Shown here in pieces: positions 1,686 to 58,709 of a stretch of DNA of 64,000 nucleotides. Source of the DNA: Bacteroidia bacterium (GTDB taxonomy: Bacteria > Bacteroidota > Bacteroidia > UKL13-3); assembly GCA_044370475.1 (NCBI GenBank), contig JBILVK010000002.1, positions 9,383 through 73,382 on the forward strand. Reading direction: 5' to 3'. Below the pieces are notes generated by a model. That model searched no databases, was not told the DNA's origin, and saw only the letters and a list, made by a program, of their open reading frames with translations. Each line of letters begins with the position of its first letter. The stretch's first letter is position 1. The position numbers were made by a program, and so were the translations under genes.

Positions 1686-2357
1686 TCACCATTTTATAGG
1701 TTCAATGTTATTTTGGAATAAATAGGCATTCGTTTTACTGAAATGTTTGCATTCAAAAAATCCTCTATGAGCCGAAAGGGGAGAAGGATGCGGAGCTTCT
1801 AAAACAAGGTGTTTTGAGCTATCTATCAATATTTTTTTGCTCTGCGCAAAGCTACCCCAAAGCAAGAATACAATGTTATGATGCTGCAGGCTAATCTGCT
1901 TTATTACCTCATCAGTAAATTCTTCCCAACCCTTTTTTTGATGCGACCCTGCTTGATTTGCACCTACTGTGAGGGTAGCATTTAACAAGAGTACTCCTTG
2001 CTCTGCCCAATGAATTAAATTGCCGCTCAACGGGATTTTATAGGAAGGAATATCAGCTTGTATGCCTTTAAATATATTGCGCAAAGAAGGAGGGAAGTCT
2101 ATTCCGTCATTCACAGAAAAACTTAAACCATGGGCTTGGTTCAGACCGTGATAAGGATCTTGGCCCAAAAGAACTACCTTGACTTGATGAAATGGTGTAA
2201 CATGAAAGGCCTCAAAGATTTTGGGTCCGGGTGGGTAAAACACCTTGCCTGCTTGTTTTTCAGCCTTTAAAAACGCAATAAGCTGCCTAAAGCTAGGTCT
2301 TTCTAGTGCCTCCTTTAAAACAAGTTTCCAGCTATCTTCAATTTGAATGTTAGACAT
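1686..2357 (-). CDS. ung: uracil-DNA glycosylase, family 1
   Basis: GQDPYHGLNQAHGLSFSV and HPSPLSA motifs. Start moved to the internal ATG (MSNIQIEDSW) by comparison with E. coli Ung as I remember it. Confidence 0.93.
   Translation of the reverse strand: MSNIQIEDSWKLVLKEALERPSFRQLIAFLKAEKQAGKVFYPPGPKIFEAFHVTPFHQVKVVLLGQDPYHGLNQAHGLSFSVNDGIDFPPSLRNIFKGIQADIPSYKIPLSGNLIHWAEQGVLLLNATLTVGANQAGSHQKKGWEEFTDEVIKQISLQHHNIVFLLWGSFAQSKKILIDSSKHLVLEAPHPSPLSAHRGFFECKHFSKTNAYLFQNNIEPIKW
2136..2148 (-). repeat. iterated motif copy, TTGGTTCAGACCG
   Basis: 13 of 15 match to the TTGGTTCAGACCGAA word. Lies inside ung and encodes HGLNQ on the coding strand. Confidence 0.8.
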
Positions 2358-2428
2358 GTTGTTGTGCAAGTTACATAATTCAGCATTTTTAATTTGCATT
2401 TATGCTCTCTGGCGTTCACTTTTGCCGT

Positions 2429-3241
2429 ATGGACCATAAAGAAATAATTGAAAAAGCTTGGGAAGATCGTTCCCTTTTAACAGATACAACTACACAGCAG
2501 GCAATAAATGAAGTGATAGAGAAGCTAGATAAGGGCGTTTTACGAGTGGCCGAACCTACCTCAAATGGTTGGCAGGTAAATGATTGGGTTAAGAAGGCTG
2601 TGATCTTATATTTCCCTATTCGGAAAATGGAAACTTACAACGTTGGACCCATGGAATACCACGATAAAATGGCACTTAAAACCAATTATGCAGAATTGGG
2701 TGTTCGTGTAGTTCCTAATGCCGTTGCGCGATATGGTGCCTACTTAAGTAAGGGCACTATTTTAATGCCAAGCTATGTTAATATTGGTGCTTATGTTGAT
2801 GAAGGAACCATGGTAGATACCTGGGCAACTGTTGGTAGTTGTGCGCAAATAGGTAAGCATGTTCACTTAAGTGGTGGAGTGGGAATTGGTGGCGTTTTAG
2901 AGCCTGTTCAAGCTGCTCCCGTAATCATTGAAGACAATTGCTTTATTGGTTCAAGATGTATAGTTGTTGAAGGAGTACACATTGAAAAGGAGGCTGTTTT
3001 AGGTGCTGGTGTTACCCTAACCATGAGCACAAAAATAATTGATGTAACGGGTCATGAACCCATTGAATACAAAGGTCGCGTACCTGCACGCTCGGTTGTA
3101 ATTCCAGGTTCATATACCAAACAATTTGCAGCTGGTTCTTACCAAGTTCCTTGTGCTTTAATTATTGGTCAAAGAAAACCTAGTACAGATTTAAAAACAT
3201 CTTTAAATAACGCACTTCGCGAATACGACGTAGCAGTATAA
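2429..3241 (+). CDS. dapD: 2,3,4,5-tetrahydropyridine-2,6-dicarboxylate N-succinyltransferase
   Basis: N-terminus MDHKEIIEKAWEDRSLL and hexapeptide-repeat body (GAYVDEGTMVDTWATVGSCAQIGKHVHLSGGVGIGG). Start chosen at the second ATG. Confidence 0.88.
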   Translation: MDHKEIIEKAWEDRSLLTDTTTQQAINEVIEKLDKGVLRVAEPTSNGWQVNDWVKKAVILYFPIRKMETYNVGPMEYHDKMALKTNYAELGVRVVPNAVARYGAYLSKGTILMPSYVNIGAYVDEGTMVDTWATVGSCAQIGKHVHLSGGVGIGGVLEPVQAAPVIIEDNCFIGSRCIVVEGVHIEKEAVLGAGVTLTMSTKIIDVTGHEPIEYKGRVPARSVVIPGSYTKQFAAGSYQVPCALIIGQRKPSTDLKTSLNNALREYDVAV

Positions 3242-3246
3242 ATAAG

Positions 3247-4155
3247 TTAATGTCCCCCGCCTTTCATCATTTTAAAAATATGAAGTAAGGCTGGGAATAC
3301 AGCATCCATTGATTCTTCTGCGCCTCTTGTGCTGCCTGGTAAGGCAAGTACAACCGTATTTCCAATAAGTCCGCATACACTTCTAGAAAGCATAGAATAT
3401 GGCATACGTTGTTGTCCATAATTTCTGATGGCTTCTGCTATGCCAGGAACTTCTTTTTCAATCAAGGGTTGCAAAGCTTCTGGCGTAACGTCAGTAGGTG
3501 AGAGTCCGGTACCCCCTGTAATTATTAATAAATCAATGCCATTGGCACAATGGTTTTTTACCCTATTCTGTATCTCACTTACCTCATCGGGTATCACAAT
3601 ATAATGTGTGTTTGCAAAGCTCATGGCTTCTAGTTTTGCCATAATAGCCTTGCCGGCTTTATCTTCTTTTTTCCCCGCAGAAATACTGTCGGAACACACA
3701 ATTACCGCCGCTTTTAGTTTATCCCCAATATTATTTTTGAAGTCGCTCTTGCCACCTTTTTTCTCAATTAATTTTATCTGCTTAATTTCAATTTGCTTGT
3801 CAATGGGCTTCAACATATCATAAATGGTTAAAGCAACAACAGATGCCCCATGCATGGCCTCAACTTCTACACCTGTTTTATAAATGGTGGAAACCTCTAC
3901 AAAAATTCTAATCTCCAAACCTTCCAATTCATAGGTTATGGCTGTTTGCTCTATGGGCAAAGGATGGCAATCTGGAATCAATTCACTGGTGCGCTTAACC
4001 CCAAATAAACCAGCCGTTCTAGCCATTTCTAATACATCTCCCTTAGGCACACGTTTATTTATAAGTGCATCCATGGTTTGGTTCGAACCAACCACAACGG
4101 TTGCGCTGGCAATTGCTCTGCGGTAAGTATTCGATTTATAGGTTATGTCTATCAT
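3247..4155 (-). CDS. moaC: bifunctional molybdenum cofactor biosynthesis protein MoaC/MoaB (cyclic pyranopterin monophosphate synthase fused to a MogA/MoaB-like domain)
   Basis: The N-terminal half resembles MoaC (KGDVLEMARTAGLFGVKRTSELIPDCHPLP). The C-terminal half resembles MoaB/MogA (IITGGTGLSPTDVTPEA). Confidence 0.88.
   Translation of the reverse strand: MIDITYKSNTYRRAIASATVVVGSNQTMDALINKRVPKGDVLEMARTAGLFGVKRTSELIPDCHPLPIEQTAITYELEGLEIRIFVEVSTIYKTGVEVEAMHGASVVALTIYDMLKPIDKQIEIKQIKLIEKKGGKSDFKNNIGDKLKAAVIVCSDSISAGKKEDKAGKAIMAKLEAMSFANTHYIVIPDEVSEIQNRVKNHCANGIDLLIITGGTGLSPTDVTPEALQPLIEKEVPGIAEAIRNYGQQRMPYSMLSRSVCGLIGNTVVLALPGSTRGAEESMDAVFPALLHIFKMMKGGGH
4078..4091. repeat. iterated motif copy, palindromic variant TTGGTTCGAACCAA
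   Basis: Perfect 14-nt palindrome inside moaC/B (encodes VGSNQ). Confidence 0.75.
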
Positions 4156-6078: not shown

Positions 6079-7333
6079 AAAATCTATTTTGAATAGCTAT
6101 TGATTCTCCATGAATTTTGTTAAAAACCTCTGTGATAAAATCCTTATCTAAGCCAAATTTACTGGCCTCTACAAGCCTTTTCCTCAAAGTTAACTCCCAT
6201 TGTTCGGTCTGAACCAAAGCCATGTTTAAAGTCTTTTTTACCTCTGCTATTTTTGTTACTATTTCTTTTCTTTTTGCTAGCATTTCTATCATTGATGTGT
6301 CTAAACTGTTCAATGCAAATCGCAAATTCTCTAATGAGCTTTGTGCTTCCTTATGAAGCTTGTTTTCTTCATCAATTAACTCATCATTCGACTGATTTTT
6401 ATTAGTATCAGATAAGGGAATATTTACCTCATTATCCTTACCTGGTAAGCTATCAATTTTCTCAATTGTATTTATATCAAAATCCTTTTCAACGCTAGCT
6501 CGGTTCAAACCGAAATTGTTTTTAAAAATTGATTCACTGCTATTCTTACTTTCTGTTTTTTTGTTGCTAATTGTAGGCGCTAAGTCCAATGATTTTTCTG
6601 CACCAACCGACGAGTAATCGCTTTCATAAAATGTATTGTACAAAGAATGATAGCTCAGCATTTTATTTGCCAAAGGCTTGCCAATTCCACATATTATTTT
6701 TATGGCTTCATTGGCTTGAAGGCAGCCTATAACTCCCGCCAGAACGCCTATTACACCAGCTTCTTCGCAGTTTTGAATGTGCATCCCACTTGGCTCATTA
6801 GGAAATAAATCTCTGTAGTTTTTACTATAGCCTTCATTCATTTTAAGGTTAAATACAGAAACCTGTCCTTCATACCTAGAAATTGAGCCATACACCAAGG
6901 CTTTGCTATGTCTTACACATGCATCATTCAACAAATACCGAGTGGCAAAATTATCTGTGCCATCAATAACCAAATCATACTCTGTTAGGATAGAATCCAC
7001 ATTGTTTGTTTGCATTTCGTGTGGGTAGGTCTGAACCAAGCATTGTGCATTGATTTCTTTAACTTTTTTTGCCGCTTGCTCAGCCTTTAATTTGCCAATA
7101 TCATTTGAAGTATATAATATTTGCCTATGTAAATTGCTTTCTTCTACTACATCAAAATCAACAATTCCTATTTGTCCAACTCCCGCCGAGGCTAAATAAA
7201 TCAATGCCGGACAGCCAAGTCCGCCCGCACCTACCACAAGAACTTTGGCTTCAAACAACTTCTTTTGTTCTACTAAACCAAAATTTGGCAAGCGCATTTG
7301 CCTAGCGTATTTATGGTAGTTTAAATCTTCCAT
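6065..7333 (-). CDS. moeB: MoeB/ThiF-type adenylyltransferase fused by a low-complexity linker to a C-terminal chorismate-mutase-like (AroQ) domain
   Basis: N-terminus VLVVGAGGLGCPALIYLASAGVGQIGIVDFDVVEESNLHRQ is the ThiF/MoeB fold. Start overlaps the moaD stop (TAATG). The last ~89 aa align by eye to E. coli CM. Confidence 0.8.
   Translation of the reverse strand: MEDLNYHKYARQMRLPNFGLVEQKKLFEAKVLVVGAGGLGCPALIYLASAGVGQIGIVDFDVVEESNLHRQILYTSNDIGKLKAEQAAKKVKEINAQCLVQTYPHEMQTNNVDSILTEYDLVIDGTDNFATRYLLNDACVRHSKALVYGSISRYEGQVSVFNLKMNEGYSKNYRDLFPNEPSGMHIQNCEEAGVIGVLAGVIGCLQANEAIKIICGIGKPLANKMLSYHSLYNTFYESDYSSVGAEKSLDLAPTISNKKTESKNSSESIFKNNFGLNRASVEKDFDINTIEKIDSLPGKDNEVNIPLSDTNKNQSNDELIDEENKLHKEAQSSLENLRFALNSLDTSMIEMLAKRKEIVTKIAEVKKTLNMALVQTEQWELTLRKRLVEASKFGLDKDFITEVFNKIHGESIAIQNRFYDNI
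6068..6334 (-). other. chorismate-mutase-like domain (last ~89 residues of the MoeB-like protein)
   Basis: LENLRFALNSLDTSMIEMLAKRKEIVTKIAEVKK...ESIAIQN. Equivalents of EcCM Arg11, Arg28, Lys39, Glu52, Ser84 and Gln88 are visible. Asp48/Arg51 equivalents are not. Confidence 0.6.
6203..6217 (+). repeat. iterated motif copy, exact TTCGGTCTGAACCAA
   Basis: Exact 15-mer. Encodes LVQTE in the CM-like domain. Confidence 0.9.
6501..6514 (-). repeat. iterated motif variant CGGTTCAAACCGAA
   Basis: One core mismatch. Lies in the linker of the MoeB-like protein (encodes FGLNR). Confidence 0.6.
7028..7039 (+). repeat. iterated motif copy GGTCTGAACCAA
   Basis: Exact 10-nt core plus AA. Encodes LVQT in the ThiF domain. 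Confidence 0.8.
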
Positions 7334-8402: not shown

Positions 8403-9599
8403 TTACTTCCAACAATCGTCAAATAAATGAATTTCTATAGGAGTTCCTTCACTAACCATAGCAATCTCTTGAGGCAATATGGCAATGCAATTTGCTTCAC
8501 TAAATGCATTTAGTTTATAGGATTCTTGTCCATCACATAAATAAACAAAACCTTGTTCTAACCTAGCTTTTAGGAAATGAGTTAGGCCCACTTTTTTGGT
8601 GTAATCATGTCCAAGTGGATATTTTTCTAGGCCATAGGGATGGTAAGTTAAACCCATCATTTTTCTTATGGTAGGCACTACATATTCATAACAACAGCTT
8701 AAAACAGAGGCCGGATTTCCAGGCAAACCAAACACCATGGTTTCCCCTTTTTTACCAAAGAACAAAGGTTTACCTGGCTTCTGTTTAACCCTGTAAAATA
8801 TGGCCTCTACGCCATTTTTATGAAAAGCTCTTTCTACAAAATCAAAATCGCCAACAGAAATCCCACCGCTCACCAAAAGAACATCACAACAAGCAAGTCC
8901 TTCCTCAATGGCCGCAATCACATCTTCCTCAAAATCATCCACGGTTTTTTTATGCAAAAATGACAAGCCCGCGCCTTGCATCAAAGCCTCCAACATCCAA
9001 GAATTACTCTCGTAAATTTGTCCGTGCTGCAATACTTCACCAGGCATAACAAGCTCCTTACCTGTTAAAATTAAACCCAGTTTTGGTGCAGGAACCACCG
9101 CAACTTCATGTATGCCCAATCCAGCCAAATAGCCAATTAAACCGGGGTTTAAGCGCTTTCCAGCCCTCAATGCAATTTCGCCTTTTTTTATTTGCGATCC
9201 CATTTTTCGAATGTGGGTACCAAGGGTAAAAGCATGGTCTTTAATGCGAATAAAGTTGCTTTCCAGATCAACATGCTCCTGCATCACAACCGTGTCGGCA
9301 CCAACTGGAATGGCTGCTCCCGTAAAAATTCTTATTGCCTTACCAGCTTCCAAACTTAAAATTTCGGTGTCTCCGGCTTGTGCAATTCCCATCACTTCTA
9401 TGGGCGTTTCGGTTCGAACCGAACCCAATGCGACAGCATAACCATCCATAGCAGACTGTGCAAATGGGGGCGAATTGAGCGGTGAAATGATATCCTCTGC
9501 AAGTACTTTCCCAACACAATGATTGAGGTTCATAATGCTTGCTGGTAACATTTTGCAGGTCAATTCTACTCGGTTTTTTGCCTCATCAACGGTAATCAT
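8403..9599 (-). CDS. moeA: molybdopterin molybdotransferase MoeA
   Basis: 398 aa with SPPFAQSAMDGYAV and LVSGGISVGDFDFV motifs. Confidence 0.9.
   Translation of the reverse strand: MITVDEAKNRVELTCKMLPASIMNLNHCVGKVLAEDIISPLNSPPFAQSAMDGYAVALGSVRTETPIEVMGIAQAGDTEILSLEAGKAIRIFTGAAIPVGADTVVMQEHVDLESNFIRIKDHAFTLGTHIRKMGSQIKKGEIALRAGKRLNPGLIGYLAGLGIHEVAVVPAPKLGLILTGKELVMPGEVLQHGQIYESNSWMLEALMQGAGLSFLHKKTVDDFEEDVIAAIEEGLACCDVLLVSGGISVGDFDFVERAFHKNGVEAIFYRVKQKPGKPLFFGKKGETMVFGLPGNPASVLSCCYEYVVPTIRKMMGLTYHPYGLEKYPLGHDYTKKVGLTHFLKARLEQGFVYLCDGQESYKLNAFSEANCIAILPQEIAMVSEGTPIEIHLFDDCWK
9408..9423. repeat. iterated motif copy, palindromic variant TTCGGTTCGAACCGAA
   Basis: Perfect 16-nt palindrome inside moeA (encodes SVRTE). 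Confidence 0.8.
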
Positions 9600-11498: not shown

Positions 11499-13169
11499 TT
11501 ATTTTATTGAATTCCCAATCAATTCGCGTGCTGCCGCTAATACCTTATCAGATGGATTCTCCCCACTCAACATGCGCGCAATTTCCTCAACGCGCTCTTG
11601 CGGACTTAACGATTTAATGGCCGTTTGTGTTTGCTCTCCCTCATTTGTTTTGTAAACATACAAATGTTGATTGGCTTTTCCTGCAATTTGAGGAAGGTGA
11701 GAGATAGCAATAATTTGATGAGATTGTGCATGCTCCCTCATCACAGTAGCAACTTTTTGAGCCGCTTCACCAGAAATACCACTGTCTATTTCATCAAAAA
11801 CCACGGTAGGCAATTTAACCTGGTCTGCAATTAAAGATTTAATGCATAGCATTAACCTACTCAACTCACCGCCACTCGCCACTTTGTTAATAGGCTGTGG
11901 GGCAAATCCCTTATTTGCAGAAAACATAAAAACCACCTCATCCATTCCAGAACCAGTTGCTTTTTCAAAGGCCAAATGCTTCAAATCAATATCAAAATTG
12001 GCATTCGGCATCGCCACCTGTACCAACAAAGAATTAACCTGTTCCAAAATTTTGGGTATGGCCAATTTCCTTTTTTTTCTCAAATTTTCCCCAGCATTCT
12101 CGGCACTTTCAGCATGCTTTTTCAATTGCCCACTTACTTTTTCAATCTCCTCATCCAAAGAACCAATCGCTTCCAATTGCCTTTCCAATTCCTGCCTCAA
12201 CGCAATCAATTCCTCAATGCTAGTTAACCTATGTTTCTTTTGAACTGCATATATCGCCTGTAACCGAGCCTCAGTTGTTGCCAATAAATTTGGGTCAGAA
12301 AGAGTCTTCTCTGCAATTAAATTCAACTCTGTAGCAATGTCTTTTAGGTCAACCAAATTACTTTCTAACCTCTGCATAATACTCGCCAACCCTTCTTGAT
12401 GCTTGGCTGCGGGCTGCAACAATGCCTTGCATTCGCGCAACATGTCAACTATGCTCTGCTCATTTCCATCCAATATATTTCCGGTCTGAACCGATACCTG
12501 CTGAATGGTTTCAGCGTGTGTTAATTCATCCAGCTTCTTTTCTAAATCTTCCTGCTCACCAAGCTTTAAATCTAGTCCCTGCAATTCACTCAAAACAAAA
12601 TTTAAATAGTCCTCATCTTGCTTTGCTTTGCTCTCCCTCTCCAATAAATCTTGTAAATATTTCTTGCTCTTTTGAAACTCCTTAAAACACTTTTGGTAAT
12701 GAATCAAGTCCTCTCCATTATTCGCAATCGCATCCAAAACAGATAATTGAAAAGCAGATTCATTCAACTCCAATGTTTCATGCTGAGAAACAATATCAAC
12801 TAAGCTTAATCCCAATGCCTTTAGTACCGGTAAATTAACAGGAGTGTCGTTTATAAAAGCCCTAGATTTGCCCGCCGCAGTAAGCTCTCGCCTTATGATA
12901 CACTGTGGCTCATAATCCAATTCATTCTGAGTAAAAAAGTCTGTTAAACGATACGCATCAATGTCAAAATGTGCCTCAACAACACACTTATCTGCCCCTT
13001 GTAAAATAACTTTAGAGTCGGCTCGCTCCCCCAAAATCAACCCCAAAGCGCCCATTAATATCGACTTACCAGCACCTGTCTCGCCAGTAATAATACTTAG
13101 CCCAGAATGAAAATTTATTTCACTCTGCCTAATAATGGCATAATTCCTGATTTTTAAACTTGTTAGCAT
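11499..13169 (-). CDS. recN: DNA repair protein RecN
   Basis: N-terminus LKIRNYAIIRQSEINFHSGLSIITGETGAGKSIL, coiled-coil middle, SGGELSRLMLC signature. Confidence 0.94.
   Translation of the reverse strand: MLTSLKIRNYAIIRQSEINFHSGLSIITGETGAGKSILMGALGLILGERADSKVILQGADKCVVEAHFDIDAYRLTDFFTQNELDYEPQCIIRRELTAAGKSRAFINDTPVNLPVLKALGLSLVDIVSQHETLELNESAFQLSVLDAIANNGEDLIHYQKCFKEFQKSKKYLQDLLERESKAKQDEDYLNFVLSELQGLDLKLGEQEDLEKKLDELTHAETIQQVSVQTGNILDGNEQSIVDMLRECKALLQPAAKHQEGLASIMQRLESNLVDLKDIATELNLIAEKTLSDPNLLATTEARLQAIYAVQKKHRLTSIEELIALRQELERQLEAIGSLDEEIEKVSGQLKKHAESAENAGENLRKKRKLAIPKILEQVNSLLVQVAMPNANFDIDLKHLAFEKATGSGMDEVVFMFSANKGFAPQPINKVASGGELSRLMLCIKSLIADQVKLPTVVFDEIDSGISGEAAQKVATVMREHAQSHQIIAISHLPQIAGKANQHLYVYKTNEGEQTQTAIKSLSPQERVEEIARMLSGENPSDKVLAAARELIGNSIK
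12482..12493 (+). repeat. iterated motif copy CGGTCTGAACCG
   Basis: Exact 10-nt core inside recN (encodes SVQTG). Confidence 0.8.
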
Positions 13170-13227: not shown

Positions 13228-14802
13228 TTATTCTAAAATAAGTTTTCTAAGCGTTTTTTGCTCGGTCTGAACCAACTCCAAAAAATATATACCTCTTGGG
13301 AGTCCTTCCACAGAAAACCTTCTTTCATGTTGATTATTAAGTATTTTGACTAAAACTTCCTGCCCCATAGCATTGAAAATCTTTGCTTGTATGGGTGCTA
13401 AATTTTCAGTTTCAATGCGTATAAAATCTTTTCCAGGATTTGGGAAAAAGTTTATACCCGACAATTTATTTTGGTCCAAAACAGAAGTTGGCCATACCTG
13501 AATATAATTTGTTTTCTTTAAAGTATTGTTGCCAATGGCATTGGTAACTCTTAGCTGGACATTGTAATTTCCCACTACATTAAATTGTACTTGAGGATGC
13601 TGACTAACAGTGCTGGTGCCATTTAAATATACCACCCCAGTATTGGGAGTAATCGTCCATAACCATGCAACCACATTGCCTGTACTGGTATCTCTTAATC
13701 CTATAGTTTCATTGAGCTTAGGAACTACATTGGTTGCATAAAAATTGGCAATTGCACCCTCCCTAATTTTGATAAAATTAGTCTTTAAAGTGTCGTCAGA
13801 TGCTCCTTCATAAATGCTAGTTAGTTTTACACTGTAATCACCTATCTCATTAAATATTACTCGTGGGTTTTCACTGCTGGCTGTTGAGCCTGGCACAAAG
13901 CTGTAGGTAGCGGGAGTAATCTGCCAAACAAAAGATTTAGGCGAGCCATAAGATGAATTTGAAAAGTTAATGGTATCACCAGGTTTACCTGTTACTCTGT
14001 TTGCATTAAAATTACAATTATTAATATAAGCTTCTGGCCTAAAAATATCTTTGTATTTTATACTTGAAACCGCATTGGTGGTATTGTTTACTACTACTTC
14101 TAATATTGGAAAACCTTGACTCTTTGCTATCCAAGAATACTCAGTTCTGGCAGCTGGAATTGGGATTCCAAAGCCTCCAAACACAATCGAATCTGTACCT
14201 ACCACAACCGATTTAATTCTTAAACAATCAAATGTTCCATAGGGAGTTGTAATTTGTCCCCAACCATCAACCGTTGTTGTTCTGCTGCCACTTTGCTTTA
14301 ATGCTCCTAAAGTAGGTAAACTCGCTTCCCCTAAATAACTACCAGAAAATGTTTTTCCATAGCTCATAGGAAACTTCATTAAGGTGTCTTTTAGGGAGTA
14401 AGTTATTCCTAATGGTAAACTTTGAACAGTGGCTCCTCTGCCCATAATAACCAATGATTGATTGGTGCTTTTGTAAAAGCTAAATACGTTGCTTGCTGCT
14501 CCTCCGCCTAGCGGACCAAGAGAAAGGCTGCTTTCAGATAAGCCATAAGAGGCAGAGAAAAACTGCAATATGTAAGGTGTGGTGGCAGGTGAAATATATT
14601 TTTGAACGTCTTGGTTATCTACTTTCAAATTACCAAAACTCCAGACATAGTTTGCTCCTGTTGCTTCATAATTTATCATACTTGAACTTGAACTATACCT
14701 AACAGTGTCATTTACCTTAGAAAAATCACCGAAATTTAGGGTGATTTGAGCTTGAGCTTTGATGGCAATGACAAATAGAAATACGTATAATTTTAATCTC
14801 AT
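13228..14802 (-). CDS. secreted PKD-repeat protein with a T9SS type A C-terminal sorting domain
   Basis: Signal peptide from the second ATG (MRLKLYVFLFVIAIKAQAQ). Two PKD-like repeats. C-terminus FFPNPGKDFIRIE...GIYFLELV. Confidence 0.72.
   Translation of the reverse strand: MRLKLYVFLFVIAIKAQAQITLNFGDFSKVNDTVRYSSSSSMINYEATGANYVWSFGNLKVDNQDVQKYISPATTPYILQFFSASYGLSESSLSLGPLGGGAASNVFSFYKSTNQSLVIMGRGATVQSLPLGITYSLKDTLMKFPMSYGKTFSGSYLGEASLPTLGALKQSGSRTTTVDGWGQITTPYGTFDCLRIKSVVVGTDSIVFGGFGIPIPAARTEYSWIAKSQGFPILEVVVNNTTNAVSSIKYKDIFRPEAYINNCNFNANRVTGKPGDTINFSNSSYGSPKSFVWQITPATYSFVPGSTASSENPRVIFNEIGDYSVKLTSIYEGASDDTLKTNFIKIREGAIANFYATNVVPKLNETIGLRDTSTGNVVAWLWTITPNTGVVYLNGTSTVSQHPQVQFNVVGNYNVQLRVTNAIGNNTLKKTNYIQVWPTSVLDQNKLSGINFFPNPGKDFIRIETENLAPIQAKIFNAMGQEVLVKILNNQHERRFSVEGLPRGIYFLELVQTEQKTLRKLILE
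13262..13275 (+). repeat. iterated motif copy TCGGTCTGAACCAA
   Basis: 14 of 15 match. Encodes LVQTE in the T9SS sorting domain. Confidence 0.88.
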
Positions 14803-42580: not shown

Positions 42581-42593
42581 CGGTCTGAACCAA
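42581..42593 (+). repeat. iterated motif copy CGGTCTGAACCAA (intergenic)
   Basis: Exact core; ends 5 nt before the ATG at 42598. Confidence 0.85.
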
Positions 42594-42597
42594 ACAA

Positions 42598-43401
42598 ATG
42601 GAAGTAAAAAGTGAATTGAAAATTGCCTTAATTCAACAAGAAATTGCCTGGGAAAATCTCCCAGCAAACCTTGAATATTTTGAGGATCTAATCTCCAAAA
42701 TTTCTCCTGATACAGACCTAGCCGTGTTGCCAGAAATGTTTAGCACAGGCTTTAGCATGAACCCAGAGAAATTTGAGGAAGAGTCGCTTCAAGCATCTGT
42801 TAATGCTATGCAAAGCTGGAGTGCGACAAATGGTATTGCAATCTGTGGTAGCCTCATGGTGAAGGAAAACGGAAGCTATTTCAATCGCTTTTATTGGTTC
42901 GAACCGAATGGAAATTCTAGCCATTATAATAAGGCGCATTTGTTTAGAATGGGAGAGGAGCAATTGCATTACGCTAAGGGGCAGGAGCAAGTTTTGATAC
43001 ATTATAAAGGATGGAAAATTGCACCTTTTATTTGTTACGACCTTAGGTTTCCGGTTTGGATAAGGCGCACTCCAGTGTATGATTATGATTTGCTCATTTT
43101 TGTGGCAAATTGGCCAGAAAGAAGGGCAAAGCATTGGAGGGCTTTAACTATAGCAAGGGCAATAGAAAATCAAGCTTTTTTGGTGGCAGTAAACAGAATT
43201 GGTGAGGATGGAAATGGGGTAAATCATTCTGGTGATTCACTTGCGATAAGTCCTATTGGCGAGGTAATTTTGGACGCTGCTGCTTTGCCTCGCGTTTTTT
43301 CTGTGAACCTAAAATATGCTGAATTGGAAAAATATAGAGAAGCATTTCCCGTTGGTCTTGACACAGATACCTTTGAAATTAAAAAGGCATGCAACGAATA
43401 G
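42598..43401 (+). CDS. carbon-nitrogen hydrolase family amidase (omega-amidase / YafV-like)
   Basis: Glu-Lys-Cys triad context: LPEMF, NKAHLF, FICYDLRFP. Confidence 0.82.
   Translation: MEVKSELKIALIQQEIAWENLPANLEYFEDLISKISPDTDLAVLPEMFSTGFSMNPEKFEEESLQASVNAMQSWSATNGIAICGSLMVKENGSYFNRFYWFEPNGNSSHYNKAHLFRMGEEQLHYAKGQEQVLIHYKGWKIAPFICYDLRFPVWIRRTPVYDYDLLIFVANWPERRAKHWRALTIARAIENQAFLVAVNRIGEDGNGVNHSGDSLAISPIGEVILDAAALPRVFSVNLKYAELEKYREAFPVGLDTDTFEIKKACNE
42894..42908. repeat. iterated motif copy, palindromic-core variant TTGGTTCGAACCGAA
   Basis: Inside the amidase gene; encodes YWFEPN. Confidence 0.85.
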
Positions 43402-47017: not shown

Positions 47018-49423
47018 TTGCGTTTAATCACGTATTTTTGGCTTATGTTTTCTAGGTATGCATTTTTCTTGTTTTTTTTCATTTTAGCTCAAAATACTTG
47101 GGTTAAAGGGCAATCCTTTACCCTCAGCGGGTATGTAAAAGATAGTACTACTGGCGAAACGCTTATTGGTGCTAGCATCAGAAATCTGGAAGGAACCTTG
47201 GGTACCGTAACCAATTCATATGGCTTCTTCTCTTTAAGTGTTCCAAATGAAGGCACTCAGCTTGTTTGCTCTTATATAGGCTATCAGCCAAAGAAATTAA
47301 CCGCAAAGAAAAATAAAAACAAGGGTATACAAATTGAACTTGCTCCTCAATCTAAAATTGCCAAGGAGGTAGTTATTAGCGGTGATAGAGTAGACAAGAA
47401 TGTACGAAGCACCGAAATGAGTAGGATTGAAATTAGTGGTGAAAAATTAAAAGCTTTACCTGTGGTTTTTGGTGAACCCGATGTGTTAAAAGCAATTACT
47501 TTGCTTCCCGGAATTAAAAGTGGGGGCGAGGCCAGTACAGGTTTTTATGTAAGAGGGGGTGGCCCAGATCAAAACTTGATTTTAATGGATGAGGCTGTGG
47601 TATATAATCCTTCTCATTTGTTTGGATTTCTTTCTGTGTTTAATGCAGATGCAGTAAAAGGAATAGATATTATAAAAGGTGGAATGCCTGCAAACTACGG
47701 TGGTAGGCTGTCTTCTATCTTAAATGTGTATATGCGTGATGGTAATAATCAGCAATATAAATATAGTGGTGGTGTGGGACTTATTTCAAGTCGCTTATCT
47801 GCCGAAGGTCCCATAGAAAAAGGTAAAAGCAGTTTTTTAGTTTCGGCCCGAAGAACCTATATCGACTTCCTGGTGAGGCCATTTTTACCTTCAGATATCA
47901 AGGGGAATAGTTATTATTTTTATGATATGAACCTCAAAATGAGTTTCATTTTAGGTGAAAAGGATAGAATTTATATTTCAGGATACTTTGGTAGAGATAT
48001 TCTTGATTATAAGAGCCAATTTAACAATTCAGTAAACTTCAATTTTGGTTGGGGTAATTCAACTGCTACTGCTAGGTGGAACCATGTTTTTAACCCCAAA
48101 TTGTTTAGCAATACCAGCATTATTTTTAACAGATATGAATTGTTTAACGACTTTAACTTTGGTGCTGGTGGCTTCAAAGTAAGAAGTAACCTAAGGGATT
48201 GGAATTTTAAAAGCGATTTTACATGGTACCCGCACGAAAAGCATCAAGTAAAATTTGGAATAAATTACACTTACCACACTTTTCAACCGGGAATTTTAAG
48301 TGGCAATATTGGTAGTACAAAAATTGACCAAGAAATAAATAAACAGTTTGCACATGAATATGCTGCTTATGCTTTGGATGAATGGAATATTAATCACCGT
48401 TGGACAATCAATTATGGCCTAAGGGCGGTTGCTTTTCAATTGGTTGGACCTTACTCTCAGGCTGAGTTCGACAATGTGAACCAACTCCCAACTGATAATG
48501 TAACCATATATAAGCCGGGCGAAACAATTGCCTTCTATCCAAGGTTAGAGCCAAGGGTAAATGTTACCTATCTTATCAATGAAAGCTCTAGTGTAAAAGG
48601 CTCCTATACGCAAACCTATCAATTCCTGCATTTAGCAACAACCTCTGGAGCCCAATTCCCAATTGATTTATGGGTTCCAAGTTCAAATTTGGTTAAGCCT
48701 CAAATGGCAAGGCAATACGCTTTGGGTTACTTTAAGAACTTTAAGCAAAATACCTATGAATCTTCTGCCGAGATTTATTATAAGCCCATGAAAAACCAAA
48801 TTGAGTTTAAACCTGGAGCCACCCTGTTTTTTAATCAAAACCTAGAGCAAGAAATGGTTTTTGGCGAGGGTAAAAGCTACGGTTTAGAACTGTTTTTAAG
48901 AAAGAAAACGGGCAAATTAAATGGTTGGATTGGATATACCTGGAGCAGAACAACAAGGCAATTCGATGAATTAAATAATGGTAAACCTTATTTCTATAGA
49001 TACGATAGAACCCATGATATTTCTGTTTTACTAAGTTACGAAATCAATAAGAAATGGTCGGCAAACTTTGTCTTTGTTTACGGAACAGGCAATGCGACAA
49101 CCTTGCCAGATTCTAGATATGCATATAGATACGGTATTGACCCTTTAACTGGCGAGCCAAAATTTGTTTTTATTGATAGGTATGGGGCTGTTAATTCATT
49201 TAGGCTACCATCTTATCATAGGGCAGATATTTCATTTACCTACATTGCTTTGCAATCAAAAAAATTTGAGAGCAGTTGGAACTTTAGTATTTACAATATC
49301 TATAACAGAGCAAATCCCTATTTCATATACTTTTTCCCAGATATAGAATCACAAACTGTTAAAGCTTATATGGTGTATCTTTTCCCAATTTTACCTTCTG
49401 TGCAATGGAATTTTAAGTTCTAA
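47018..49423 (+). CDS. TonB-dependent receptor (carboxypeptidase-regulatory-like domain + plug + barrel)
   Basis: FTLSGYVKDSTTGETLIGASI CarbopepD-like start, the plug motif VVFGEPDVLKAITLLPGIKSGGE, and a C-terminal aromatic residue. Start is uncertain (TTG 47018 or ATG 47045). Confidence 0.85.
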   Translation: MRLITYFWLMFSRYAFFLFFFILAQNTWVKGQSFTLSGYVKDSTTGETLIGASIRNLEGTLGTVTNSYGFFSLSVPNEGTQLVCSYIGYQPKKLTAKKNKNKGIQIELAPQSKIAKEVVISGDRVDKNVRSTEMSRIEISGEKLKALPVVFGEPDVLKAITLLPGIKSGGEASTGFYVRGGGPDQNLILMDEAVVYNPSHLFGFLSVFNADAVKGIDIIKGGMPANYGGRLSSILNVYMRDGNNQQYKYSGGVGLISSRLSAEGPIEKGKSSFLVSARRTYIDFLVRPFLPSDIKGNSYYFYDMNLKMSFILGEKDRIYISGYFGRDILDYKSQFNNSVNFNFGWGNSTATARWNHVFNPKLFSNTSIIFNRYELFNDFNFGAGGFKVRSNLRDWNFKSDFTWYPHEKHQVKFGINYTYHTFQPGILSGNIGSTKIDQEINKQFAHEYAAYALDEWNINHRWTINYGLRAVAFQLVGPYSQAEFDNVNQLPTDNVTIYKPGETIAFYPRLEPRVNVTYLINESSSVKGSYTQTYQFLHLATTSGAQFPIDLWVPSSNLVKPQMARQYALGYFKNFKQNTYESSAEIYYKPMKNQIEFKPGATLFFNQNLEQEMVFGEGKSYGLELFLRKKTGKLNGWIGYTWSRTTRQFDELNNGKPYFYRYDRTHDISVLLSYEINKKWSANFVFVYGTGNATTLPDSRYAYRYGIDPLTGEPKFVFIDRYGAVNSFRLPSYHRADISFTYIALQSKKFESSWNFSIYNIYNRANPYFIYFFPDIESQTVKAYMVYLFPILPSVQWNFKF

Positions 49424-49428
49424 TAGAA

Positions 49429-50313
49429 ATGAATACTCTCATGAAATTACCTTATTTTTTGTCAAAACAATTTTCCAAAATACCCTTGTTGTTAATTGCT
49501 GCTACACTATTAATTAGTGCTTGCGAAAAGGAGATAAAAATTGACCTGCCTCCTTCAAAACCAGAATTGGTTGTAGAGGCTTCCATTAATCAATTATCGC
49601 CAACGCTTAATTATGTGGTGCTCTCTAATACCCTCGATTATTTCAATCCAAGCCTCGATTTATCTGCAGTAAGTGGAGCTAAAGTTTACATTACAGAAGG
49701 AAATATCATTGGCAATGATACTGTTTTTGAAACAGCAAATCGACTGCAGTTTTATGATGTTGCAAGCGAGATTTTTCCAGGAATTTATGTAAATCCAAGC
49801 TTTGTTGGTCAGGTAGAAAAACCTTATTACCTAGAGATAGAATTAAATGATGGCAAAAAGATAACAGGCAAAACATTTATACCTAAACCCGTTCCAATAG
49901 ATAGCATGCATTATTGGTTCGAACCAAACGAAAAAGACACCAATGCATTCTTTTATTTTAATTGGTTTGATGGCCCAGAACAAAACAACTATAGGGTGGT
50001 GCTCAAGGAGGGAATTTTGCCCGTGTTAACTGGCTGGGGCTATGCCGATAGATTCTATACTTTTGATGATTCGCAAATAAACAATCAAACTAGGCCTTTT
50101 CTAATGCTTAATCCTTTTAAATATGGCGATACCGTTCATGTGTATTTATCACAAATAGGAAGAAAGGAATACCTCTTTTGGGATTCATTTAGAAATGCTG
50201 CAAATAATGGCGGACCCTTTGCTACGCCTACCTCTGTTTCTTCAAATGTGGAGGGCGCTATAGGTTCCTTTACGGGTTATGGTATTACGCAAACACAGTT
50301 TATTTTAAGGTAA
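49429..50313 (+). CDS. DUF4249-like lipoprotein, partner of the upstream TonB-dependent receptor
   Basis: Lipobox LISAC followed by KPELVVEASIN, with the typical position downstream of a TonB-dependent receptor gene. Confidence 0.6.
   Translation: MNTLMKLPYFLSKQFSKIPLLLIAATLLISACEKEIKIDLPPSKPELVVEASINQLSPTLNYVVLSNTLDYFNPSLDLSAVSGAKVYITEGNIIGNDTVFETANRLQFYDVASEIFPGIYVNPSFVGQVEKPYYLEIELNDGKKITGKTFIPKPVPIDSMHYWFEPNEKDTNAFFYFNWFDGPEQNNYRVVLKEGILPVLTGWGYADRFYTFDDSQINNQTRPFLMLNPFKYGDTVHVYLSQIGRKEYLFWDSFRNAANNGGPFATPTSVSSNVEGAIGSFTGYGITQTQFILR
49914..49927. repeat. iterated motif copy, palindromic variant TTGGTTCGAACCAA
   Basis: Perfect 14-nt palindrome; encodes YWFEPN, as at 42894. Confidence 0.8.
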
Positions 50314-54479: not shown

Positions 54480-54494
54480 TTCGGTCTGAACCAA
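54480..54494 (+). repeat. iterated motif copy, exact TTCGGTCTGAACCAA (intergenic)
   Basis: Exact 15-mer 15 nt after the desaturase stop, flanked by a T-run and an A-run. Confidence 0.9.
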
Positions 54495-54540: not shown

Positions 54541-55191
54541 ATGAGCCCTTTAGTACATCTCATCAAAAAAGAATTCATCCTTGAATGGAGGCAACGTTAT
54601 GCCCTCAACGGAATTTTATTGCAAGTACTGTCGTCTGTATTTGTGGTTTATCTTGCCATTAAAACCCTAAACAATAACTCCTGGAATGGTGTGTTCTGGG
54701 TGCTTATGCTTTTTATTTCAATTAATGCCATTGCCAAGAGCTTTATTGGTGAAGGAAAAGGTAAAAATCTTTATTACCATATGTTGGTTCAGCCCCAACA
54801 ATTGCTGCTTGCTAAATTTATTTACAATGCCATCTTGAATGTGTTTTTGGCAGCCTTAAGCCTTTCTACTTTTATGCTGTTACTTGGTAATCCTATAGAA
54901 TCTATGGCCTTATATTTTGCCGTAACATTCTTTGGATGCATTGGTATTGCTGGAACTTTTACCATGTTATCGGCCATCTCATCTAAAGGCGGTAACAGCA
55001 ATTTATTAATGCCCGTTTTAAGCTTACCCATCATTATTCCTTTGCTGCTCATCATTATTAAAGCCGCCAAAAGAGCAATGGATGGAACAGATGCTACTCA
55101 GATATACAAAGATCTTGGAACCTTATTTGTGTTCAATATCTTGGTGGTAGTGCTTGCCTATATCTTGTTTCCTTCTCTTTGGAAAGAATAG
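54541..55191 (+). CDS. ccmB: CcmB-like heme-exporter ABC permease
   Basis: Six-TM protein. LEWRQRYALNGILLQ and GGNSNLLMPVLSLPIIIPLL resemble CcmB. Confidence 0.6.
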   Translation: MSPLVHLIKKEFILEWRQRYALNGILLQVLSSVFVVYLAIKTLNNNSWNGVFWVLMLFISINAIAKSFIGEGKGKNLYYHMLVQPQQLLLAKFIYNAILNVFLAALSLSTFMLLLGNPIESMALYFAVTFFGCIGIAGTFTMLSAISSKGGNSNLLMPVLSLPIIIPLLLIIIKAAKRAMDGTDATQIYKDLGTLFVFNILVVVLAYILFPSLWKE

Positions 55192-56366: not shown

Positions 56367-56370
56367 GTAT

Positions 56371-57063
56371 ATGATGGCTTGGTTCAGACAGAATTTATTG
56401 AATACTATTTTGCTTATTGCATTGGTATTAACATTGCATGCATGTTCTAAAAATAATTCTGCCGAGGCGCAGCCCGACCTAGGCTTGGCGTATTTCCCTT
56501 TAGATTCTGGGTGGGTAAAAGTGTACAGTGTAGATTCCATTTCCTTTAATGATAATACAGAAACCATAGATACTTTTCACTTTATGCTAAAGGAAACTTT
56601 TGCTGGAATTATATCTGGGCAAGAGCTTAACGCGCATAGGGAGGTGAAAAGAGAAGTATTAAAAGATAGTAGTGAAATATGGGAGCCTAGGACATCTATT
56701 TTTATTACACAAGATAAAAATACCTTGCAATGGGTTGAAGAAAACACCCGTTTTGTAAAGCTTATTTTTCCTATAGGTACTGCCCAATCTTGGAACGGAA
56801 ATGCCTACAATTCTCTTGGCAGGAAAAATTATCAATGGCAGAATTTATATGCTAATTTTAATAATGGTGATACCCTCTTTAGCAACTGTATAAGCGTGCT
56901 AGAGGCGCAAACAAACAACCTTATTGAGGAGATTCTCATTCGCAATGTCTACGCAAAAAACCTTGGTTTAATTGATCGCACAAACACCAATATCAATACC
57001 CAATCGAATAAAAAATCGGGTTATAAAATTAGACAAAAACTTAAATCATTTACCCGTCCATGA
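56371..57063 (+). CDS. hypothetical lipoprotein
   Basis: ATG at 56371, just after the mnmA stop. Lipobox LTLHAC. The track's earlier start is TTG inside mnmA. Confidence 0.45.
   Translation: MMAWFRQNLLNTILLIALVLTLHACSKNNSAEAQPDLGLAYFPLDSGWVKVYSVDSISFNDNTETIDTFHFMLKETFAGIISGQELNAHREVKREVLKDSSEIWEPRTSIFITQDKNTLQWVEENTRFVKLIFPIGTAQSWNGNAYNSLGRKNYQWQNLYANFNNGDTLFSNCISVLEAQTNNLIEEILIRNVYAKNLGLIDRTNTNINTQSNKKSGYKIRQKLKSFTRP
56379..56393 (-). repeat. iterated motif variant TTGGTTCAGACAGAA
   Basis: 14 of 15 match; codons 3-7 of the lipoprotein gene (AWFRQ). Confidence 0.65.
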
Positions 57064-58709
57064 GACTTCTTTTTTGCTTCTTTCTTCTTTTTTTCGGTCT
57101 GAACCTAAGCGCCCAACAAAGGTTTTATTTTGCAGAGTTCATTGACAAGCCCAACGCAAAAAAGCAACTATACAATCCATCAAGTTATATCTCTTTAAGG
57201 GCCATCGATCGCAGGTCGAGGAATAGGGTACCCTTAAATATAAATGACATTCCTCCAGATAGCGCCTACCTAGCGCAGTTAGCTCAATTGCCCTTATTAC
57301 TTTATGGAAGCAGCAGGTGGCTTAATGGCGCAATTATTCTGGCAAACAACAAGGAAATTGAAGCTCAAATTAAAAGCCTAAGTTTTGTTAGTAAGTTAAC
57401 CTACTTAGGTCCGGCTTACTTTTATGAAGAACAAGATGAAGCAACAGAAAATAGCCTCGAAAATCAACTTCAAATCCTAGCTCAATCCTTCGAAAATAAG
57501 AGCGAAAAAAATGATTCCATTCTTCTGGGCAAAAGCTTTAATCAAATAGACCAAATTCATGCGGCAGGTTTAATGAAATCTGGACTCAATGGCAAGAATA
57601 CCTTAATTGCTGTATTAGATGCCGGCTTTAAAAACCTAGATAAATTACTTCCATTTAATCACTTGTTTGCTGAGAAGAGAATTCTTGCTACAAGAGACTT
57701 TGTGGAGATGGAAGAAGAGGTATTTGAAGATGATGAACATGGTCTTTCCGTAATGAGTTGTTTGGGTGCTTTTCAGCCTGGAGTTATTAGCGGCACCGCA
57801 CCCGGAAGCAGTTATTTGTTACTTAGATGCGAAAATGCATCATCAGAATATTTGGTCGAGGAATACTTTTGGACCTTAGCTGCAGAGTATGCTGATAGCG
57901 CAGGTGCTGATATTATTAATTCTTCTTTGGGTTATACCAAACATGATGAAAAAGCCATGGGACACAAGTATGCTGAGTTCGATGGCAAAACAACAGTGGT
58001 AAGCAGGGCCGCCGATATTGCTGCTAGCAAGGGTATTTTAGTGGTGGTAAGTGCTGGCAATGAAGGCGATGATCCATGGCGCCAATTAAGTGCTCCAGCA
58101 GATGCGCCTAATGTTTTAACGGTGGGTGCCATAGATAAGCATGGCAGTTATGCAGGCTTCAGTTCAGTGGGTCCAACTTCCGATAAAAGAATTAAGCCAG
58201 ATTTAGTTGCAAAAGGAAAAAATGCGGTATTAATGTCTCAGGATGCCAAGATTTTTGAAGGCAATGGAACATCCTATGCCTGCCCAATTATAGCAGGTGC
58301 AGGGGCTATTTTATTGCAGGCTGAACCAAGCGCTACTTCTCAAAAAATCAAAGAAACGATGATGCTTACTTGCAACCAATATGATAATCCCGATAAATAC
58401 ATTGGTTCAGGCTTACCTAATATTGAATTAGCTGCTAAGTGTCTTAAGGTAAAAACAGATAGTTTAATTGACTTAAGAGAGTTGCCAGATAGATATTTGC
58501 ATGTGATTATTAATGCCAAGTACGATCAAAAGGTTCAAGTAACCATTACCGAACCAATAAAGAAAGAAACAGAGAAATTGAATTTACACCTTAAAAAAGG
58601 TTTGAACAGAATAAAATTAAAAGGATACAAAAAACGCCCAAGTGGAATTTATCACTTGAGCGTTGAGTTTACCCAAAAAAGGGTGGAAGCAGATTTTGTT
58701 AAGCCTTAA
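57060..58709 (+). CDS. S8 (subtilisin) family serine peptidase
   Basis: Asp (AVLDAGF), His (HGLSVMS), Ser (GTSYACP). ATGA start/stop overlap with the upstream gene. Confidence 0.85.
   Translation: MRLLFCFFLLFFGLNLSAQQRFYFAEFIDKPNAKKQLYNPSSYISLRAIDRRSRNRVPLNINDIPPDSAYLAQLAQLPLLLYGSSRWLNGAIILANNKEIEAQIKSLSFVSKLTYLGPAYFYEEQDEATENSLENQLQILAQSFENKSEKNDSILLGKSFNQIDQIHAAGLMKSGLNGKNTLIAVLDAGFKNLDKLLPFNHLFAEKRILATRDFVEMEEEVFEDDEHGLSVMSCLGAFQPGVISGTAPGSSYLLLRCENASSEYLVEEYFWTLAAEYADSAGADIINSSLGYTKHDEKAMGHKYAEFDGKTTVVSRAADIAASKGILVVVSAGNEGDDPWRQLSAPADAPNVLTVGAIDKHGSYAGFSSVGPTSDKRIKPDLVAKGKNAVLMSQDAKIFEGNGTSYACPIIAGAGAILLQAEPSATSQKIKETMMLTCNQYDNPDKYIGSGLPNIELAAKCLKVKTDSLIDLRELPDRYLHVIINAKYDQKVQVTITEPIKKETEKLNLHLKKGLNRIKLKGYKKRPSGIYHLSVEFTQKRVEADFVKP
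57093..57105 (+). repeat. iterated motif copy TTCGGTCTGAACC
   Basis: Exact core; lies in the signal-peptide coding region (FFGLNL). Confidence 0.8.

Follow-up and report, generated by a model that had tools for sequence, protein, structure and literature searches.

We find that a 15-base word, TTCGGTCTGAACCAA, together with its close variants, is scattered through genes and spacers in one small clade of uncultured lake Bacteroidia, at a density of about one copy per 3 kb. The word was analyzed in a 64-kb stretch of contig JBILVK010000002.1 from a Bacteroidia bacterium (the window), which was read together with flanking DNA of the same species to a total of 79 kb, as well as in related genomes and metagenome loci. 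The feature is real and strong, and is apparently undescribed in Bacteroidota: it is present in very large excess, it acts at the level of DNA, its copies arise and decay by point mutation, and it is confined to one young clade in which species have their own dialects. We assign a probability of about 0.5 to the reading that the word is a clade-specific, recently evolved self-DNA tag, which would be of the type of the DNA uptake sequences (DUS) of Neisseriaceae and the uptake signal sequences (USS) of Pasteurellaceae and would have spread by biased uptake or recombination.

The excess in the window is evident in each form in which the word was counted. The core GGTCTGAACC / GGTTCAGACC is present 11 times (starts at 2138, 6206, 7028, 12483, 13264, 15886, 26262, 34850, 42582, 54483 and 57096), compared to 0.01 expected from dinucleotide shuffles, and the palindrome GGTTCGAACC is present 5 times (4080, 9411, 27473, 42896 and 49916), compared to 0.02 expected. 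The full 15-mer is perfect at 6203, 15884 (minus strand), 26259, 34848 (minus strand) and 54480; there are 18 matches to it with two or fewer mismatches (0.14 expected) and 32 with three or fewer (1.36 expected). These cores, palindromes and perfect 15-mers had been located by an earlier examination of the letters (the sequence-only reading), and our exact recount agrees with it on every one. Similarly, the G+C content judged there by eye as ∼37% was computed as 36.9%. The one-mismatch copies that it placed at 6501, 30121, 30635, 34325 and 56379 do exist, but these numbers are either 1 to 3 bases from the core starts or are starts of the 15-mer. A de novo census of k-mers from 10 to 16 bases in length placed the word, with its sub-words, at the top of the non-trivial k-mers of the window.

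The orders-of-magnitude excess that had been estimated for the word holds against dinucleotide, Markov and codon-shuffle nulls alike, with an enrichment of ∼1000-fold. Markov models of orders 1 to 5 predict between 0.045 and 0.54 copies of GGTCTGAACC, compared to the 11 observed, and when synonymous codons were shuffled in all open reading frames (ORFs) with the proteins kept, a mean of 0.15 copies was obtained (maximum 2 in 500 shuffles), compared to the 8 copies of GGTCTGAACC that lie in ORFs. An artefact of composition or codon usage is thus ruled out by the Markov models, as well as by the existence of relatives with matched G+C content that are free of the word.

All copies fit the consensus (T-run)TTCGGT-YY-GAACC-R-A, in which GGT and GAACC are invariant; the family can also be written as TTCGGTYYGAACCRA. 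The window holds 19 distinct core copies, or about 1 per 3.4 kb, and the central dinucleotide of these is CT in 11, TC in 5, TT in 2 and CC in 1. The TC form is the palindrome, and thus the palindromic sibling described by the sequence-only reading does exist, but as one member of a family centred on YY rather than as a separate element. In the window species, 5 to 7 bases on the 5′ side are rich in T (62–77% T), the two bases 3′ of the core are A (85% and 100%), and a comparison of the copies revealed no similarity outside the T-run and the A-run. The earlier statement that five copies continue into an A-run was overstated, since the number depends on the length required: five copies extend to GACCGAAA, four to GACCGAAAAA and only three to GACCGAAAAAA. 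The CpG within TTCGG is 92–100% conserved and shows no decay.

The word is quasi-palindromic, consisting of a T-run, GGT, four bases, ACC and an A-run, with the commonest form asymmetric at two places (C versus A in the arms, and CT at the centre). The hairpins that copies could form, as RNA or as DNA, are weak (−1.6 to −6.7 kcal/mol), and the best value requires pairing of the T and A flanks to give a 9-bp hairpin. An intrinsic terminator was rejected as an explanation, since a T-run on the 5′ side and an A-run on the 3′ side is the reverse of the terminator layout, and a terminator scan, which did call the real dnaN terminator at 28645–28680, called no copy of the word. Separately, GGTAAGAACC occurs three times in the window, at 3134 (minus), 31534 (plus) and 39466 (minus), in each case without the flanks of the word; these occurrences are probably due to chance or unrelated.

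The copies in the window are as follows, with coordinates of the window, and with no strand given for palindromic copies.

2136–2150, minus strand: CACGGTCTGAACCAA, 2 mismatches, in the uracil-DNA glycosylase gene (sense frame, HGLNQ).
4077–4092: palindromic-core TTTGGTTCGAACCAAC, in the MoaC/MoCF gene.
6203–6217, plus strand: perfect 15-mer, in the ThiF/MoeB gene (antisense frame, LVQTE).
6500–6514, minus strand: TT-dialect TTCGGTTTGAACCGA, in the ThiF/MoeB gene (sense frame, FGLNR).
7025–7039, plus strand: GTAGGTCTGAACCAA, in the ThiF/MoeB gene (LVQTY).
9408–9423: 16-base perfect palindrome TTCGGTTCGAACCGAA, in the MoeA gene.
12480–12494, plus strand: TCCGGTCTGAACCGA, in recN; the orthologous position in locus L045 lacks the word.
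13261–13275, plus strand: CTCGGTCTGAACCAA, near the 3′ end of a gene for a protein with PKD domain and type IX secretion system (T9SS) tail; decayed form in L045.
15884–15898, minus strand: perfect 15-mer, in the HU-CCDC81/SPOR gene (LVQTE); L045 keeps a copy with 1 mismatch.
26259–26273, plus strand: perfect 15-mer, in the spacer 12 bases past the DEAD-box helicase stop codon; orientation reversed in the L167 spacer.
27470–27485: palindromic core with T-run and A-run, in the spacer upstream of dnaN; kept in L167, TT form in L168.
30122–30136, minus strand: TT-dialect CTCGGTTTGAACCGA, in queG (PRFEPN); conserved across the clade.
30635–30649, plus strand: CC variant TTCGGTCCGAACCAA, in queG; L167, L168 and L178 have the CT core.
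34324–34338, plus strand: degenerate CTCGGTCTGATCCAA, 2 mismatches, in mutY.
34848–34862, minus strand: perfect 15-mer, in mutY, encoding WFRPK.
42579–42593, plus strand: CACGGTCTGAACCAA, in the spacer that separates the SIR2 and CN-hydrolase genes.
42893–42908: palindromic-core TTCGGTTCGAACCAAT (as read on the minus strand), in the CN-hydrolase gene.
49913–49928: palindromic-core TTTGGTTCGAACCAAT, in the DUF4249 gene.
54480–54494, plus strand: perfect 15-mer with T-run and A-run, in the spacer 15 bases past the fatty-acid desaturase stop codon.
54784–54798, minus strand: degenerate TTGGGGCTGAACCAA, 2 mismatches, in ccmB.
56379–56393, minus strand: TTCTGTCTGAACCAA, 1 mismatch, in a hypothetical gene.
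57093–57107, plus strand: TTCGGTCTGAACCTA, 1 mismatch, at the 5′ end of the S8 peptidase gene (FGLNL).
38662–38676 (plus strand) and 39286–39300: partial copies (GTCTGAACCAA), the first in the gene for a 1454-amino-acid CHU_C protein.
15357, 22255, 24413, 36846, 53151, 58315 and 60173: relics with 3 mismatches.

Beyond the window, the flanking DNA of the same species carries further copies at −3323, −626, 67332 and 70981.

To describe the placement of the word relative to genes, we pooled 90 copies over the clade and considered ORFs of 300 bases or more. Approximately 79% of the copies lie inside ORFs, where they occupy five of the six frames: 32 are in antisense-0 (LVQTE), 18 in sense-0 (FGLNQ), 11 in sense-1 and 5 each in antisense-1 and antisense-2, while the sixth frame, which contains TGA, holds none. 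By frame, the encoded peptides are LVQTE, FGLNQ, xR(F/S)EPx, WFRP and GSD. Copies outside ORFs make up 21% of the set, compared to 7.6% of random positions, a 2.8-fold enrichment (p = 4e-5). Thus, since five frames are used and spacers are enriched, the signal is in the DNA and not in the protein; indeed, the synonymous-codon shuffling indicates that codon choice is bent toward the word. Within genes, the antisense orientation is found more often than the sense orientation (42 versus 29). The word is placed where the coding cost is least, as described for USS and DUS (PMC2346458, PMC2817400, PMC1939737). One favoured in-gene orientation has been reported for both USS and DUS (PMC2346458), and both also show an excess in spacers (PMC1939737).

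The sequence-only reading had excluded both a shared protein domain and a mobile repeat, and our results concur on each. A protein motif is ruled out by the use of five frames on both strands and by the codon shuffling, while a miniature inverted-repeat transposable element (MITE) or repetitive extragenic palindrome (REP) is ruled out by the 79% of copies in ORFs, the weak hairpins and the absence of extended flank homology.

Copies are gained and lost by point substitution, based on alignments of orthologous sites between the window and the syntenic loci L045, L167, L168, L170 and L178. The copies at 13261, 15884, 27470, 30122 and 30635 are conserved in position, often with another central dinucleotide or with decayed flanks. 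Other copies are present in one species only (12480 in the window, 5695 and 7914 in L045, 8713 in L168, 1475 and 1669 in L170), and at these sites the other species has unrelated sequence. In the spacer past the DEAD-box helicase gene, the window (26259–26273, plus strand) and L167 (8768–8782, minus strand) carry the word at the same spot in opposite orientations, in species that are 77% identical in DNA. Gain of the word appears occasionally to cost protein sequence: in mutY at 34848, the peptide is WFRPK in the window and in L167 compared to WISSN in L178 and WISKT in L168, a change that, as judged from the aligned sequences, fits the peptide to the word. The preferred central dinucleotide also differs between species, such that CT is preferred in the window species and in L167, and TT in L168 and L169; in the genomes CAILJQ01, JAIOYZ01, CAMDHZ01 and CANHDN01, TT is at least as frequent as CT once the copies by which loci were selected are subtracted.

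To determine how widely the word is distributed, we scanned 185,579 species-representative genomes for the exact 15-mer. Among the matches listed, the word is on at least 14 contigs of CAILJQ01 (‘uncultured Bacteroidetes Loclat_bin-05405’), at least 8 contigs of JAWXAZ01 (‘MP5IB2.37’) and at least 3 contigs each of JAKRSG01 and JAIOYZ01; CAMDHZ01, CANHDN01 and JBILJL01 have at least one match each with degenerate copies nearby, and each remaining genome among these matches has a single chance match. At least seven related species-level metagenome-assembled genomes (MAGs) are therefore dense in the word over many separate contigs, which, together with the copies outside the window, upholds the supposition of a genome-wide word.

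A sample unselected for the word yields the boundary of its distribution. We examined 80 metagenome loci around dnaN, binned by the identity of their DnaN protein to that of the window, and found 16 cores in the 68 kb of loci with a DnaN identity of at least 86%, compared to 2 cores in the 849 kb with an identity of 55–83% (2 in 307 kb for the G+C-matched subset). The gene order around dnaN is common only to the word-bearing group. The members of this group are 72–77% identical to the window in DNA, and therefore the word marks a clade of genus-to-family level. The word is absent from the closest sampled relatives of the clade and is the property of a narrow clade, not of Bacteroidota at large. 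At the periphery of the clade, the loci L171, L178 and L173 (DnaN 82–86% identical) have fewer and more degenerate copies (0.8–2.7 cores per 10 kb), and neither L171 nor L178 has a copy within two mismatches of the 15-mer; this scarcity may reflect decay after loss of the reader or early accumulation.

All of IMG/VR yielded 49 single matches, which is at chance level, and no enriched contig, although the clade's own phages were not identified. A phage-borne or mobile element was rejected, since no IMG/VR contig has more than one copy; the window itself contains no island.

When alternative dialects were sought as scattered words in outgroup loci, we found only tandem repeats and one 10-mer. 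The 10-mer, CCTTGCGGGA, occurs five times in 21 kb of L200 (DnaN 62% identical), at 1658, 2372, 8634, 20442 and 20916, with T-rich flanks, and could be either a terminator arm or a lineage-specific word. In L087, from JAWXAZ01 (MP5IB2.37), positions ∼400–1230 are a minisatellite in which a 14-base unit (TTACCTTTATTGGG and variants) is repeated in tandem ∼60 times.

Neighbouring copies of the word tend to lie in opposite orientations. Among neighbouring strict cores, 48 pairs have opposite orientations and 17 pairs have the same orientation (binomial p = 1.5e-4), and only 101 of 20,000 shuffles of orientation within loci reach this ratio. All five groups of data lean the same way (opposite to same 9:6, 14:2, 5:2, 14:6 and 6:1), and the ratio is ∼42:16 without the loci that overlap by homology, namely the dnaN set, L045 and L021. 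For pairs less than 500 bp apart, with degenerate copies included, 15 are opposite, one of which is an artefact, and 1 is the same. Examples in the window are 6203/6500/7025, 30122/30635, 34324/34848, 42579/42894, 54480/54784 and 56379/57093, and the loci in the clade that show alternation include L072 (2349/2385) and L029 (5378/5411). The two inverted arrangements, plus–minus and minus–plus, are equally frequent. There is neither clustering nor over-dispersion of spacing (33 gaps below 800 bp compared to 35.4 expected), and the strands of the window and its flanks show no clear polarity over 79 kb (10:6 for strict cores and ∼12:8 with degenerate copies). The orientation result is exploratory and post hoc. 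Alternation would follow if the reader recognised the word on a single strand or in a single direction and needed no more than one copy per strand on each fragment, and we take the result as a hint of such reading; a second copy in the same sense would then be redundant, while one in the opposite sense would not. Alternation could otherwise come from the purging of 15-bp direct repeats, which are prone to deletion, but this leaves unexplained the ratio of 16:4 between pairs 2 to 4 kb apart. The papers on USS and DUS that we consulted make no mention of alternating orientation.

The formal likeness to DUS and USS that the sequence-only reading had pointed out is borne out by the restriction of the word to a clade, its dialects, its turnover by point mutation, its enrichment in spacers and its preferences of orientation and frame. 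The DUS (ATGCCGTCTGAA and its dialects) resembles the word in being asymmetric and 12–15 bases long, in orders-of-magnitude excess in genes and spacers and in both orientations, with one orientation favoured in ORFs, restriction to a clade, dialects 1–2 bases apart and some inverted pairs. The word differs from it in belonging to another phylum and to a younger and narrower clade, in its ∼4 times lower density, in being quasi-palindromic with a T-run and an A-run, and in alternating on a kilobase scale; DUS, in addition, is associated with an uptake bias, with ComP and with the type IV pilus. The word and the neisserial DUS GCCGTCTGAA have GTCTGAA in common (word positions 5–11) and match at 8 of 10 bases (chance p ∼0.005 for a random 15-mer), but the comparison was post hoc, and we treat it as a curiosity rather than as evidence of homology.

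The USS (AAGTGCGGT) is similarly built of a core with AT-rich flanks, turns over by point mutation, is over-represented in spacers and has two dialects; its copies, like those of the word, lie mostly inside ORFs, where codon usage dictates which few frames are preferred, and at poorly conserved positions (PMC2817400, PMC1626085). It is unrelated to the word in sequence, and the word is present at lower density.

Within the phylum, the only well-studied competence system is that of Riemerella (Flavobacteriaceae), which is naturally transformable; R. columbina prefers its own DNA, and a tag has been suspected there but not yet identified (PMC7965970, PMC8459023). A hunt for k-mers in that family yielded A-rich words only (PMC8459023, PMC7965970). 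Our literature searches, which covered the word itself as well as uptake sequences in Bacteroidota, in Flavobacteriia and in other classes, found no prior description, in agreement with the sequence-only reading, which was aware of none in Bacteroidota.

In Neisseriaceae and Pasteurellaceae, the signature of uptake sequences is accounted for by molecular drive that results from bias in uptake and recombination. The features of the word match those of the uptake sequences of these families, and we therefore consider an uptake or recombination machinery to be its most likely reader. Under the self-DNA tag reading, an uptake or recombination component of the clade would prefer to bind (T-run)TTCGGT-YY-GAACCAA, such that fragments bearing the word would be favoured, in both uptake and recombination, over those that lack it. 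Point mutations that improve near-matches would then spread by molecular drive where the coding sequence tolerates them, and genes and spacers would fill over time to about one copy per 3 kb. As in Riemerella, the putative reader may consist of a TonB-dependent transporter in the outer membrane and a lipoprotein at the cell surface, and not of a type IV pilus; transformation in Riemerella requires ComEC, DprA, ComF and RecA, as well as a CarboxypepD_reg outer-membrane protein, a DUF5689 lipoprotein and a periplasmic helix-hairpin-helix protein (PMC8459023, PMC7965970).

Several observations weigh against a self-DNA tag. The density of ∼0.3 per kb is 3 to 5 times below that of H. influenzae and N. 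meningitidis (∼0.8 per kb; PMC2817400). Alternating orientation is not expected from classical uptake, in which double-stranded DNA is bound at the cell surface, and both the quasi-palindrome and the perfectly palindromic variant would also suit a dimeric DNA-binding protein inside the cell. There is no competence gene within the 79 kb read, and E. coli DprA, ComEC and ComF probes gave no match in 2.3 Mb of locus fragments, a result that is uninformative on whole genomes. Finally, the clade is uncultured, and the counts come from MAG contigs and metagenome loci.

The symmetry of the word leads to the first alternative, in which the copies would be an array of sites for a clade-specific intracellular DNA-binding protein (nucleoid-associated, chromosome-organizing, ParB/Noc/SlmA-like or repair-associated), with hundreds of sites kept by selection for compaction, segregation or surveillance. 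We regard this as unlikely, although several sites are conserved in position across species, orientation can flip in place, and alternating orientation could reflect a directional loader or a loop anchor. The known arrays of parS, Noc-binding sites (NBS), SlmA-binding sites (SBS) and matS comprise tens of palindromic sites per genome and are regional. The word, by comparison, is present at ∼0.3 per kb on many contigs, and its commonest form is asymmetric. Furthermore, its fast turnover and its placement where the coding cost is low (spacers and the fast-evolving mutY) fit drive better than they fit a position-specific function, and sister lineages in which the genes near dnaN have the same order are entirely free of the word. 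An origin-proximal, parS-like cluster, which the presence of dnaN in the window could have suggested, was likewise rejected, since there is no DnaA-box cluster and the word is on many other contigs.

A second alternative is a Chi-like signal for a translocating helicase-nuclease or a recombination mediator, which would shield linear self DNA, transforming DNA on its way in among it, from degradation and start recombination. Both Chi and the FtsK-orienting polar sequences (KOPS) are spaced at a few kilobases and are read at the level of DNA regardless of genes, and the orientation pattern of the word also suggests directional reading. The density, about 1 copy per 3 to 6 kb, is similar to that known for Chi in E. 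coli; the 48:17 alternation is what would be favoured if linear fragments were processed from both ends; and copies lie in or near DNA-repair genes (udg, recN, mutY twice and the dnaN spacer), although this last point is weak and post hoc. However, known Chi sites and KOPS span 5 to 8 bases, are enriched only a few-fold and share the direction of replication, whereas the word extends over 15 to 20 bases, is ∼1000-fold enriched, has no clear strand polarity in 79 kb and alternates between neighbours. Quasi-palindromy is also not expected of a site that is read on single-stranded DNA. We consider a Chi-like role improbable.

Similarly, we consider it a long shot that the word is like HIP1 (GCGATCGC) of cyanobacteria, in which case a clade-specific methyltransferase or very-short-patch repair would convert near-matches to matches. 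HIP1 is hyper-abundant and, like the word, is scattered through coding and non-coding DNA; the palindromic member of the word family contains TTCGAA and a CpG, and the YY variants are joined by single transitions from TC to TT to CT. However, HIP1 is a strict 8-base palindrome that is denser and phylum-wide, while the word is a 15-base element of a narrow clade and is mostly non-palindromic (11 CT compared to 5 TC). Known short-patch repair has a context of 4 to 6 bases, which the 15-base specificity of the word far exceeds; the conserved CpG of TTCGG is not decaying, and no methyltransferase gene is present within the 79 kb read. For HIP1 itself, a possible link to transformation that depends on methylation has been described (bioRxiv 10.64898/2026.06.24.733823).

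Explanations that are trivial or involve mobile DNA (a protein motif, remains of the ends of MITEs or insertion sequences, intrinsic terminators or an assembly artefact) are effectively refuted: some copies with both T-run and A-run do form the 9-bp hairpin (−6.7 kcal/mol) and the queG copy at 30122 overlaps a conserved FEPN peptide, but independent JGI, NCBI and Logan assemblies carry the identical sequence with ORFs intact, close inverted pairs occur equally in both arrangements, unlike terminal inverted repeats, and REP elements, bacterial interspersed mosaic elements (BIMEs) and MITEs, which are also short repeats with dyad symmetry, are extragenic, 30–150 bases long and endowed with stable hairpins and common flanks, while the word is conserved over ∼15–20 bases.

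The window is core chromosome, with genes for molybdopterin synthesis, recN, udg, mutY, ssb, dnaN, queG, RNase G and gldD, as well as genes for T9SS-tailed proteins and a TonB-dependent receptor, and it is 100% identical to contigs of several JGI lake metagenomes, to a Logan assembly and to the MAG GCA_964544835.1 (CAZJDT01). Genes diverge around the tRNA/dnaN region (21331–34012), mostly on the minus strand to the left and on the plus strand to the right; the minimum of the cumulative GC skew is nearer 40–56 kb, and no origin can be placed in the window. A nuclease gene flanked by two copies of the word was considered as a clade-specific insertion and rejected, since the linkage of nuclease and dnaN extends outside the clade. 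Genes of DNA metabolism make up ∼10% of the window and hold 6 of ∼24 copies (2136 in udg, 12480 in recN, 34324 and 34848 in mutY, 15357 and 15884 in HU-like genes), with the copy at 27470 just upstream of dnaN; this recalls the reported bias of DUS and USS to genome maintenance genes, but the sample is small and the observation post hoc. At 47018–50313, a gene for a TonB-dependent receptor whose N-terminal domain is CarboxypepD_reg is followed by the DUF4249 lipoprotein gene that has a palindromic copy. By description, this pair is of the same kind as the CarboxypepD_reg and DUF5689 pair of Riemerella, with another partner family.

How a genome can be reshaped by the machinery with which it imports DNA is classically illustrated by uptake sequences. 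To our knowledge, the accepted examples come from two proteobacterial families only, both of them old, and therefore the origin of such systems could not be watched. The word presents the same genomic signature in a different phylum, among abundant lake bacteria whose clade is so young that it still has close relatives free of the word; to what is known of uptake sequences, it also adds an orientation rule. It is possible, and we put this forward tentatively, that the word is the first bona fide uptake or recombination tag outside Proteobacteria, one that is of genus level, recently born and split into dialects, that is read in a specific direction, probably by a Bacteroidota reader other than a pilus, and that has converged on the GTCTGAA of DUS.

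Since sister lineages with DnaN 74–83% identical to that of the window are free of the word, phyletic profiling, through a comparison of gene content between word-rich and word-free lineages, could reveal the gene for the receptor or reader. In addition, one could measure the rate at which the word accumulates and its cost to proteins, and could put molecular drive to the test in nature. If the reader is instead an intracellular binding protein, the copies would still be an unusually dense site array of high information content, with an alternating polarity that is unexplained. If the word is indeed a self-DNA tag, it would imply frequent recombination by transformation within clades of freshwater Bacteroidia, and would supply a recognition step for the poorly understood competence apparatus of Bacteroidota.

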